29,828 nt of DNA from Sulfolobaceae archaeon (GTDB lineage: Archaea > Thermoproteota > Thermoprotei_A > Sulfolobales > Sulfolobaceae), in the NCBI GenBank assembly GCA_038893355.1, contig JAWARQ010000009.1:1-29828 (forward strand), written 5' to 3'. The position numbers were made by a program, and so were the translations under genes. Below, one piece after another: positions 163 through 29,828 of the stretch (within the stretch, counting starts at the first letter, position 1; every line of letters begins with the position of its first letter). The notes under the pieces were generated by a model that saw only the letters and a program-made list of their open reading frames with translations, did not search any database and was not told where the DNA came from.

Positions 163-244
163 TTAGGAACCCTCCCCTAATCGCCACGTGGGCCTTTTAG
201 ACCCACGTGGCAATGTTAGCTTATACTATGCTTGAAATATGACC

Positions 245-257
245 GAAAGATTTATTA
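245..257 (+). promoter_or_regulatory. BRE-TATA in IS110 right end, pointing outward
   Basis: GAAAGA-TTTATTA matches the Sulfolobales BRE/TATA pattern and is conserved in the mini copies at 4572, 19664 and 27639. Confidence 0.55.
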
Positions 258-265
258 CTGAACGC

Positions 266-415
266 CCCAACGAGGGGCTTCATTCCTCACTAAGGGATAG
301 GCTTGTACGCTTCAAGAGGGCTACGAAGGCAGTAAATAGGAGCATAAGCATGATAAAGTACTCCATAGCACCAGTCTTATGGGAGAGAAGACTAATCCCA
401 GAATTTATACCCTAA
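266..415 (+). pseudogene. IS1-family transposase C-terminal remnant (ISC796-like), interrupted by the IS110
   Basis: PNEGLHSSLRDRLVRFKRATKAVNRSISMIKYSIAPVLWERRLIPEFIP* resembles the IS1 InsB tail (E..N..LR..L.RL.R.T). Confidence 0.75.
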
Positions 416-4546: not shown

Positions 4547-4885
4547 CTGACTTCTCACCGCCCTAGAGGGTGGCGTTCAGTAATAAACCTTTCGGTCATA
4601 TTTCAAGCATAGTGTAAGCTAACATTGCCACTATATAGTTTCCCCTCATCGGTTCGGGTTTACATCCTTCATTTAAGATGCAGACGAGAGATTCAGAGAC
4701 CATTCCATTATCACAACAATACCCTTATCATTCTCGTAACTGCCGGGCATTTAAGCCAAAAGGCGAGAAACCCTAACTATCTTTCGACCACAATTAGGGC
4801 AAGAGGTAGAAGAATAGCAAGGATTAACAAAAACAACAAGGATACAATGCTTCCTTGCCCGCTACTTAATCCAATATTGAACCCT
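4547..4885 (-). pseudogene. tnpB: IS200/IS605 tnpB 3' remnant with right end (ISC1316-like)
   Basis: Minus strand reads [34 protein letters not shown]...YEND...MKDVNPNR*, then a right-end hairpin CCACCCTCTAGGGCGG and GAAGTCAG; contains stops and frameshifts. Confidence 0.8.
4572..4639 (-). mobile_element. Mini IS110 derivative, family 1 (68 bp)
   Basis: AC-TATATA followed by 58/60 identity to 207-266; inserted in the tnpB right end. Confidence 0.75.
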
Positions 4886-19663: not shown

Positions 19664-19728
19664 GACGTTCAGTAATAAATCTTTCGGTTGACTTTAAGCA
19701 TGGTATTAGCTAAGATTGCCTATATAGG
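19664..19728 (-). mobile_element. Mini IS110 derivative, family 1 (65 bp)
   Basis: CC-TATATA-GGCAATCTTAGC...ACCGAAAGATTTATTACTGAACG-TC. Confidence 0.72.
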
Positions 19729-27632: not shown

Positions 27633-27700
27633 CAGTCTGGCGTTCAGCAATAAATCTTTCTCTTAATACAAGAAATAGTGCCGTTATTGGGCTATAAATT
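27633..27700 (-). mobile_element. IS1-family right end split by a 34-bp mini IS110 (27639-27672)
   Basis: Minus strand AATTTATAGCCCAATAACGGCACTATTT-[CTTGTATTAAGAGAAAGATTTATTGCTGAACGCC]-AGACTG. Confidence 0.65.
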
Positions 27701-29318: not shown

Positions 29319-29493
29319 CTTAAATCACCTAATCTTCCTTTAATTAACTCTAATGATTTATTATAAACTTCATCATTATTTAATATTTCATTACATAATT
29401 CACAAATACTAGTAAATTTTTTGTTATTATATTTATAATCTAGTTTTAGTTCTTTTAATAACCTTGAAGGTCCTATTAATGTGACTGACTTCC
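29315..29493 (-). pseudogene. C-terminal fragment of a probable radical SAM protein (EpeE/YydG-like), interrupted by IS110
   Basis: KSVTLIGPSRLLKEL...KFTSICELCNEILNN; ATGA overlap with the ABC ATPase; the track's MFYI start lies inside the IS end. Confidence 0.55.
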
Positions 29494-29508
29494 TTATATA
29501 AAACATAT

Positions 29509-29654
29509 TAGTCAGATCTGCGTAATACAGATCTGACTGGGGTTGAGGCCGTTGACTTCCTTGGGCTCAAAGCTCGACGGGGAGCTTGGCCCGCCTCCAA
29601 ATTCGTACCGGAAGTTGGGCCTGAAGCCCGAATAAAACATAAGGGTGAGTATAT
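29509..29654 (+). ncRNA. Putative IS110 bridge RNA
   Basis: Perfect 11-bp hairpin 29510-29538, further GC-rich stems, and internal TGACTTCCT identical to the left flank. Confidence 0.6.
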
Positions 29655-29828
29655 ATGGAGGCCCCAGTTGCAGGAATAGATATATCAAAAGATAAGTTGA
29701 CAGTGTATTTCCAAGGTAAGTTTTACGAGTTTCCTAATAATAGGCAAGGGTTTGAGGGGGTAAAGCAAATCTTGCCTAAGGGCTGTAAGATAGGTATTGA
29801 AAGTACTGGAGTTTACCATATTAACTTA
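29655..29828 (+). CDS. IS110-family transposase/recombinase N-terminus (DEDD RuvC-like domain), cut by window edge
   Basis: MEAPVAGIDISKDKL...IGIESTGVYHINL (GID.SK and E.TG.Y motifs); GGTGA RBS upstream. Confidence 0.92.
   Translation, partial: MEAPVAGIDISKDKLTVYFQGKFYEFPNNRQGFEGVKQILPKGCKIGIESTGVYHINL

Follow-up and report, generated by a model that had tools for sequence, protein, structure and literature searches.

The two ends of a single archaeal contig, each broken inside an insertion sequence (IS) of the IS110 family, are the subject of this analysis. The contig (C9, JAWARQ010000009.1) comes from assembly GCA_038893355.1 of a Sulfolobaceae archaeon (G000), which totals 1.40 Mb in 17 contigs, is 84% complete, and has ~33% G+C; its whole length of 29,828 nucleotides (nt) is referred to as the window. 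A first-pass annotation had taken the two edges for the right and left ends of one IS species and proposed that their joining in a circle would assemble an archaeal promoter for the bridge RNA. By comparison of their peptides and ends, the two edges are instead the ends of two different IS110 elements, and in each of these the element's own right end carries a promoter-like motif that would face the bridge-RNA gene once the element's two ends were joined. Features at both edges are collected in Table 1.

The element at the left edge is called IS-B (ISC1229/ISSto6-type) and the element at the right edge is called IS-A (ISC1190-type). The C-terminal peptide at the left edge shares 52 of 53 residues with a full-length IS-B transposase (L014) and 25 of 43 with IS-A, while the N-terminal peptide at the right edge shares 55 of 58 residues with an IS-A transposase (L002) and 23 of 52 with IS-B; the two full transposases are 45 to 46% identical to each other. 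Proteins identical or near-identical to the relatives' IS-B transposases carry the source names "IS110 family transposase ISSto6" and "Transposase ISC1229," and an identical-family protein of the relatives' IS-A transposase is named "Transposase ISC1190." The window itself holds only 58 N-terminal codons of IS-A and 53 C-terminal codons of IS-B, and no full-length copy of either element is assembled in this genome; full-length copies of both were obtained from the genomes of relatives. Counts given below refer to the copies listed: 27 IS-A left ends, 17 IS-A copies with both ends, and 5 full IS-B copies. Membership of both elements in the IS110 family rests on the family domains, on CC cores in place of terminal inverted repeats, and on a structured RNA with guides at the left end. 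The full-length IS-A transposase has both PF01548 and PF02371 (54 and 96.5 bits in L002), and for that of IS-B (L014) PF02371 is found at 89.5 bits, while PF01548, at 27.8 bits, falls just short of the 29-bit cutoff.

TABLE 1 Features at the window edges and related sites (window positions unless a contig is named; RE, right end)
Feature	Position	Strand	Remarks
3' end of IS-B transposase gene, cut by contig start	1-162	+	Stop codon 160-162
IS-B noncoding right end, 104 bases	163-266	+	Ends GACCGAAAGATTTATTACTGAACGCC; hairpin CCACGTGGG...CCCACGTGG at 184-210
Outward-facing BRE/TATA-like motif CGAAAGA-TTTATTAC	244-258	+	7.5 bits, genome-derived matrix
Right-end stretch ACTGAAC, repeated in donor-binding part of IS-B bridge RNA	257-263	+	Same 7-mer at element nt 114-120 (L014) and 116-122 (L042)
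IS-B core dinucleotide CC, right end	265-266	+	CC on both sides of the 5 listed full copies; second-guide match in L025 and L015
Predicted start site of right-end promoter in linear window copy, in flanking DNA	279-282	+	Prediction from matrix spacing
IS-B mini-elements	4572-4637, 19664-19726, 27639-27664	-	Also C2:188274-188342 (-), C2:70652-70716 (-), C3 ~113370-113441 (+), C1:41302-41346 (+)
Core dinucleotide CC left of IS-A	29492-29493	+	
IS-A left end encoding bridge RNA	29494-29654	+	96% identical to full-length copy in G006; fold z = -4.4
A/T-rich left-end terminus TTATATAAAACATA	29494-29507	+	~-12 to -1 of would-be junction promoter; rival TATA box
5' hairpin, 13 pairs, loop CGTAATA	29508-29540	+	-17.7 kcal/mol, z = -5.8; 0/200 shuffles fold as well
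Left target guide TGACTTCCTT of bridge RNA	29553-29562	+	Identical to 29486-29495 (flank, core, first two left-end bases)
Donor guide TACCGGAAG	29606-29614	+	Equals RE -14 to -6 of IS-A copies; this genome's right end (C3:101-126) holds ACCGGAAG
Donor guide ATAAAACATA	29632-29641	+	Equals left-end nt 5-14 (29498-29507)
Shine-Dalgarno-like GGTGAG (29644-29649) and first 58 codons of IS-A transposase, cut by contig end	29644-29828	+	ATG at 29655

The termini of both elements can be placed to the nucleotide. Position 266 is a true element end, as 37 distinct copies from this genome and its relatives are alike up to ...CTGAACGCC and diverge after it; window positions 163 to 266 are identical to the L014 right end at 92 of 107 aligned positions and to the IS-A right end at 56 of 104. 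Full IS-B copies measure 1,211 to 1,276 bp, begin TATATAGGTTTTATTAGCCGGGGAGAG... directly after CC, all have a TATATAGG-type left end, and follow the layout CC, TATATAGGTTTTAT-TAG(hairpin)...CGAAAG(A/G)-TTTATTA-CTGAACG-CC. At the other edge, the window reads ...CTGACTTCC, then TTATATAAAACATATTAGTCAG..., and then enters a G+C-rich structured stretch. The IS-A copies with both ends are mostly 1,167 to 1,189 bp long, with a transposase that ends ...AVLYYNKPFDAGE, a right end that closes ...ACTATGCTTGATTTTCGATGGAAAGGTTTTTATACCGGAAGCT-CC, and the layout CC, TTATATAAAACATAT-TAG(hairpin)...GGAAAGG-TTTTTATA-CCGGAAGCT-CC, for which the right-end consensus is GGAAAGG-(C/T)TTTTATA-CCGGAAGCT-CC. CC closes 12 of the 17 IS-A right ends, the others having TC, CA, or CT. 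IS-A begins at 29494, one T earlier than the 29495 first proposed, with CC and then TTATATAAAAC in 23 of the 27 left ends.

Partner ends of both elements lie on other contigs of this genome, each at a contig end. IS-B left ends, with TATATAGGTTTTAT-TAG and the hairpin, occur at C10:25178 and C16:7792, and an IS-A right end (GGAAAGG-CTTTTATA-CCGGAAGCT-CC, preceded by an IS-A-type C terminus) occupies C3:101-126. On C2, an IS-B mini-element (flank at C2:188240-188273) occupies a site whose two sides correspond to the right flank of IS-B in the window (267 to 300, CCAACGAGGGGCTTC...) and to the sequence on the left of the IS-B left ends (C10:25150-25177 and C16:7765-7791, ...CTCACTGGTTAA), which makes the IS-B target itself a repeat. 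The contig order is probably C10 or C16, then C9, then C3.

Guides in the left-end RNA match the flanks and ends of the element that encodes them. The IS-A target guide covaries with the flank among relatives (L011, L012, L027, and L035), with GATCTCCTT accompanying TATCTCC, GACGCTCC accompanying GACGCTCC, and ACTATTT accompanying ACTATC. In IS-B, a 9-nt stretch past GGTCGA repeats the left flank, and an alignment of cognate copies (L025 and L015) shows a second guide, an 8-nt stretch that follows a small hairpin, to be the reverse complement of CC and the adjoining right flank. The IS-B RNA also repeats its own ends, as ACTGAAC (RE -10 to -4) and ATATAGGT (left-end nt 2 to 9). The bridge RNA of a third lineage, E, repeats ATATAAGT, and the donor guides differ among IS-A, IS-B, and lineage E in step with the ends. 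These guide/flank and guide/end matches settle the CC cores and exact ends, and hence the cognate joints. No Rfam family reached its gathering score in the window, and the only match at a loose threshold, to sX15 (E = 1.8), was set aside as due to chance. A separate observation concerns an IS-A sublineage (L036, L039, and L040 in G018) that is inserted in, or has a target guide (ACAAACCCC) for, GGGCGTGACAAACCC; this sequence is part of the IS-B bridge-RNA gene, meaning that one IS110 species targets another.

The right-end motif was evaluated with a matrix for the transcription factor B (TFB) recognition element (BRE) plus TATA box learned from this genome (322 sites out of 1,063 gene-upstream regions), where the first T of the TATA box lies most often 30 nt, and mostly 29 to 31 nt, before the ATG of leaderless genes. 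The elements of the IS-B motif are exactly as first read: GAAAGA at 245 to 250, TTTATTA at 251 to 257, CTGAACG at 258 to 264, and the terminal CC at 265 to 266. This motif sits at the 99.80th genome percentile, with 1.4 to 4.7 chance matches per kb per strand, and is the sole plus-strand match of at least 4 bits within positions 150 to 420. The IS-A motif, GGAAAGG-TTTTTATA, scores 10.9 bits (9.6 for the C3 copy of this genome), at the 99.99th percentile with a chance expectation below 0.22 per kb per strand. The IS-A score is reached by 1.0% of gene-upstream windows and the IS-B score by 12.3%. Both motifs have the core promoter layout of Sulfolobales, with a purine-rich BRE directly upstream of TATA; the published consensus is a purine-rich 6-bp BRE and an 8-bp TATA box (TTTAWATR), with an A/T-rich proximal promoter element at -12 to -1 (10.1101/2025.11.20.689296). 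What takes the motif beyond chance is its conservation at a fixed offset from the element end together with its spacing to the left-end hairpin.

That spacing becomes apparent when each right end is joined to its own left end. Counted back from left-end nt 1, the first T of the TATA box is then at a distance of 19 nt in IS-A and 16 nt in IS-B, which predicts a start at left-end nt 10 to 13 for the former (29503 to 29506) and nt 13 to 16 for the latter. Hairpin pairing begins at nt 14 to 15, followed by GGGG and then the target-binding part. Left-end nt 1 to 12 are A/T at 10 or 11 of the 12 positions and in the joined form would occupy the position of the proximal promoter element. The element sequence ahead of the hairpin amounts to 13 to 16 nt, too short to hold a TATA box at -30. 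A distance of 30 to 31 nt from TATA to hairpin, counted originally on the ends of two different elements, holds for the true IS-B left end (7 + 7 + 2 + 14 nt to TAG), but only because the left ends of IS-A and IS-B are built alike. BRE and TATA both lie in the right end, 8 nt before the element end in the window copy, and are not split between the two ends as in IS621. The promoter is thus complete in a linear copy, from which it would fire into the flank.

Conservation is concentrated in this region. At a fixed offset from the element end, 34 of 36 distinct IS-B/E-type right ends and 22 of 23 distinct IS-A-type right ends carry the motif with a score of 6 bits or more. Within the right end, sequence is best preserved over the final 23 nt, as seen in 37 distinct 75-nt B/E-type ends. 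Lineage E, with a transposase 44 to 47% identical to that of IS-B, departs from IS-B in its left end (TATATAAGTAATAT-TAGGCTGGGA...) and in the upstream part of its right end but retains AGAAAGATTTATTACTGAACG-CT and the same 14-nt distance to the hairpin. The conserved block exceeds the 7 to 9 nt matched by the donor guide; for IS621, a 22-bp donor is reported to suffice when the RNA is supplied in trans (PMC11208160). The hairpin stems found in IS-A, IS-B, and lineage E are almost entirely different in sequence, and each of them nevertheless folds (z = -5.8, -6.7, and -2.9, respectively), with the loop (G)TAATA(C) common to IS-A and IS-B. This pattern indicates that the 5' hairpin is maintained by compensatory changes in three lineages.

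The sequences establish which two elements these are, where they end and what their cores are, how the guides match targets and ends, and that the motif is present, conserved, and regularly spaced; from this we infer promoter activity of the motif, formation of circles, and an RNA start near the positions given above. In the proposed sequence of events, the tip of the IS-B right end would present in series the outward BRE/TATA, the 7- to 9-nt "right donor" of the bridge RNA, and the CC core. Excision as a circle, or an arrangement of head-to-tail copies, would bring the complete BRE/TATA 16 nt ahead of IS-B's own left end, where TATA-binding protein (TBP), TFB, and RNA polymerase would start at about left-end nt 13 to 16, with the A/T-rich nt 1 to 12 as the proximal promoter element. 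The transcript would then carry the conserved 5' hairpin, the target- and donor-binding parts of the bridge RNA, and finally the transposase frame. IS-A would be built in the same way with its own right end, represented in this genome on C3. Linear copies would send transcripts from this promoter into neighboring DNA and would themselves rely on read-through or a weak internal start, the situation reported for IS621. A junction promoter formed by the cognate right end and facing the bridge-RNA gene in the circle is in our view plausible, with a somewhat better than even chance of being correct. The idea of a TBP/TFB counterpart to the IS621 junction promoter thus survives for cognate ends, where BRE/TATA points outward and the start would fall before the hairpin; the junction originally drawn and the split layout do not.

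Several observations on the elements themselves stand beside this proposal. The annotated IS-B transposase frame (353 to 357 amino acids; L014:589-1659, L027:461-1531, L043:325-1395, and others) starts with an ATG 5 to 6 nt past the 5' hairpin and spans the entire bridge-RNA region, which lengthens the N terminus by ~35 residues not found in IS-A. The frame offers no ATG, GTG, or TTG closer to the conserved GIDVSKD, and residues 3 to 6 differ among copies exactly at the 9-nt target guide (MVDLLSE, MVERETE, MVETLSE, and others). IS-B also has mini-elements of 63 to 77 nt, in which the first 6 to 10 nt of the left end (TATATAGG after CC) are fused, at a microhomology (GGTT) within the right-end hairpin loop, to the last ~57 to 67 nt of the right end. 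They retain BRE/TATA and the donor tip, and copies in other genera reach 97 to 99% identity with window positions 200 to 266. A reading of the mini-element as a C/D-box RNA was rejected for want of canonical boxes and of any Rfam match. IS-A has a derivative of 314 nt, seen in one copy, in G024 (L004:1390-1703, minus strand), consisting of the left end, the whole bridge RNA (~209 nt), and ~100 nt of right end including BRE/TATA, without a transposase.

A number of results weigh against a junction promoter. The IS-B motif is modest in score, and with chance matches of equal quality as frequent as given above, its mere presence is unremarkable. IS-A and IS-B differ by 4 nt in the distance from TATA to "TATTAG," a difference that shrinks to 2 nt with TBP in the TTTATACC register. 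A TATA-like TATATA opens every left end and could direct the start to the conserved TAATA loop, and conservation of the right end could instead serve protein binding. IS-A, IS-B, and lineage E form one clade, and their shared motif is one inheritance rather than three inventions. The motif is absent from the distant IS110 lineages C1, C2, and D of the same family of organisms (L105 to L118 in G148, G147, G024, and G006, found by Pfam genome search), which are ~30% identical to IS-A, measure 1.49 to 1.52 kb with 384- to 402-amino-acid frames, have ends CTCCTACGG... and ...GCATGT(A/G)NNGCCT(T/A), and carry a TATA-like site just upstream of the ATG. A wider search of archaea for independent lineages returned IS-A and IS-B again.

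Searches for joints and RNA starts likewise returned little. Twenty-four sequencing runs hold the stretch of a relative in which IS-B and IS-A are adjacent (L027), all of them stored as assembled contigs. In 4 of the 24 (3 labeled as RNA and 1 of unknown kind), neither start sites nor a back-joint from right end to left end was seen; contigs can show neither, and this result says nothing for or against the proposal. The exact 18-nt IS-B joint, taken as a natural stretch of L109, was found once in five complete relatives, in a remnant with only 12 nt of left end; among metagenome contigs it gave six matches, one to this same remnant (L131) and five to unrelated sequence by chance. The remnant (L109:1555-1592 in G148) is a chromosomal IS-B right end followed by CC, exactly the first 12 nt of the left end (TATATAGGTTTT), and then unrelated sequence, with no gene start downstream. 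Its makeup marks it as the trace of a head-to-tail or integrated junction, and it confirms that right and left ends share a single CC when abutted.

A possible protein ligand of the right end is Cbp1. Blombach et al. (2024) reported that Cbp1 binds the 3' flank of ISC1229 (n = 7) and that, if a circle-formed promoter were conserved, Cbp1 could control the ISC1229 promoter (PMC10883916); a review adds that deletion of cbp1 activates a cryptic promoter inside IS110 elements (PMC11894787). CRISPR repeats from two relatives were aligned to IS110 right ends with 2,000 shuffles. The 25-mer at L027:1547-1571 (G018), in an IS-B right end just past the stop codon (...TTAATCGCCACCTGGGTTGAAAG), matches the CRISPR repeat of its own genome at 16 of 25 positions, a level reached by 23 of 2,000 shuffles, and both sequences end in TTGAAAG; by this resemblance it is a candidate for the published Cbp1 site. 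The match is not significant in the window copy of IS-B, which has a different hairpin loop (14 of 25; 325 of 2,000 shuffles), nor in IS-A (12 of 25). No CRISPR array was found in this incomplete genome. The notion that the Cbp1 core site is the BRE itself (GAAAG) was dropped, as the best repeat match falls in the post-stop hairpin region.

Among alternative explanations, the literal version of the original proposal can be addressed most directly. It would have the window's right end (up to 266) and left end (from 29495) belong to one IS species and meet in a circle as TTTATTACTGAACG-CC-TATATAAAACATAT-TAGTCAG. Both edges are indeed IS110 ends cut by contig ends, and one contig of one RNA-labeled run from another strain does link the right end of IS-B, through one extra C, to the left end of IS-A (L027 positions 1638 and 2125). 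We read that contig as a linear arrangement, in which IS-A has inserted next to an IS-B end, and not as a circle; the usual IS-A target CTGACTTCC resembles CTGAACGCC(C). With edges from different IS110 species, the drawn junction is a chimera rather than one that a natural circle would contain: each of the 17 two-ended IS-A copies has the CCGGAAGCT-type right end, closing ...GGAAAGGTTTTTATACCGGAAGCT-CC and not ...CTGAACG-CC, the full IS-B copies have their own type of left end, the donor guides of each bridge RNA match the ends of its own element only, and the cognate partners of both elements lie on other contigs. We regard this version as very nearly without a chance. A far more serious alternative, though one we still think rather unlikely, is that the right-end motif is kept for binding of the recombinase or a host protein such as Cbp1, or for the 3' end of the transposase transcript, and that RNA starts alike in linear and circular forms, either from the left-end TATATA, ~28 to 30 nt in and within the TAATA loop, or by read-through from the flank. 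Three lineages all begin with TATATA or TTATAT though their donor guides could tolerate other sequence, and the loop shared by IS-A and IS-B lies 28 to 31 nt after the first T. Read-through also has a local candidate, a 7.4-bit promoter-like site in the flank (TATTATA-TTTATAAT, 29425 to 29439, plus strand) that points into IS-A, has a predicted start ~31 to 34 nt before the left end, and could supply transcription to the linear copy. Reported low-level expression of IS621 loci by read-through without a junction promoter (PMC13626964) and the Cbp1 binding noted above are in keeping with this explanation. On the other side, the left-end TATATA, whether preceded by the flank or by the right-end tip, stays below 4 bits because it has no purine-rich BRE, and a start in the loop would omit the 5' arm of the very hairpin that compensatory changes preserve. 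Archaeal terminators use a T5 run, which the IS-B motif lacks, and the best CRISPR-repeat-like site is placed 45 nt ahead of the BRE in the IS-B right end of a relative and loses significance in the window copy.

The right-end BRE/TATA may alternatively be a working portable promoter that drives outward transcription from linear copies and mini-elements into host DNA and has no special role in a circle. The completeness of the promoter in every linear copy, the retention of exactly the BRE/TATA part in mini-elements, and the cryptic promoter activated on cbp1 deletion, whose place in the element the review does not state in the text consulted (PMC11894787), are all compatible with such a role. 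However, the three mini-copies in the window have no same-strand gene close downstream, and outward firing leaves unexplained the A/T-rich 12-nt left end and the placement of TATTAG and the hairpin at a matching distance in three lineages. As a complete account it seems improbable to us, and outward and junction roles are in any case not mutually exclusive. A model that combines them would have a complete portable promoter at the tip of ISC1229/ISC1190-type right ends; in circles or head-to-tail copies this promoter would gain the proximal element and start site of the left end and produce a burst of one transcript carrying the 5' hairpin and bridge RNA together with, for IS-B, the transposase frame, while linear copies and mini-elements would fire into host DNA and Cbp1-like factors bound in the 3' flank may restrain them. 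It would be the first case of a junction-activated promoter in an archaeal transposon, and the family would scatter mobile outward promoters through the genomes of Sulfolobales. Taken in all its parts, this combined model is offered tentatively, with a chance well below even. The junction promoter formed by cognate ends remains the core of our preferred explanation.

Junction promoters are established in bacteria. Those of IS911, IS2, and IS30 (Pjunc) couple transient strong expression to formation of the joint between right and left ends, and they and that of IS492 are bacterial promoters split into -35 and -10 halves; all but IS492 are DDE transposons with inverted repeats. IS492 has been cited as a circle-forming element with a junction promoter (PMC10883916), and it resembles the arrangement proposed for IS-A and IS-B in that transient strong expression is tied to the joint of right and left ends.

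The closest parallel is IS621 of Escherichia coli, in which a junction promoter drives the bridge RNA from a -35 box in the right end and a -10 box in the left end (Durrant et al. 2024, PMC11208160) and linear copies depend on read-through (Hiraizumi et al. 2026, PMC13626964). IS-A and IS-B share with it the PF01548 and PF02371 domains, scarless ends around a 2-nt core, a left-end RNA with a 5' stem-loop and target- and donor-binding guides, and a right-end promoter element pointing across the joint; their 5' hairpin corresponds to the 5' stem-loop of the IS621 bridge RNA (PMC11208160), and linear copies would presumably live on weak read-through as well. Unlike in IS621, the putative promoter of IS-A and IS-B is archaeal, with BRE and TATA for TFB and TBP in place of sigma70 elements. 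Both of its recognition elements lie in the right end, the left end adding only an A/T-rich proximal stretch and the start site, so that the promoter is complete, and potentially active outward, in linear copies. The core is CC, and the IS-B transposase frame stays open across the region of the bridge RNA.

For ISC1229 itself, the sizes reported in Saccharolobus solfataricus, ~1.23 kb for intact copies and down to 77 bp for partial ones, fit those of the full IS-B copies and mini-elements described here (PMC10883916). The idea of a junction promoter for ISC1229 has already been voiced conditionally in the same paper, the text of which mentions neither a BRE/TATA nor a start site nor a bridge RNA. 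In the literature searched, no demonstration of a junction promoter in archaea, or of a start site for an archaeal bridge RNA, was found, with the reservation that figures and supplements of the Cbp1 papers may place the Cbp1 site and the cryptic promoter. The layout with BRE and TATA on one end is a variant of a known mechanism, plausible rather than proven.

If the proposal is wrong, the motif is a mere TATA-like word in A/T-rich DNA at a conserved recombination site. If it is right, the logic of junction promoters would hold across the divide between bacteria and archaea despite unrelated promoter machinery, by a different layout in which the whole BRE/TATA sits on one end. The persistence of a 23-nt right-end tip in lineages with no more than 44 to 47% identity between their transposases would have an explanation, and there would be a mutable target (GAAAG/TTTATTA and left-end nt 1 to 17) for the switching-on of archaeal bridge recombinases, of relevance to thermostable bridge-RNA tools and to Sulfolobales genetics. 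A further prediction is that every linear copy and mini-element is transcribed outward, which would affect neighboring genes and bear on the reported binding of Cbp1.

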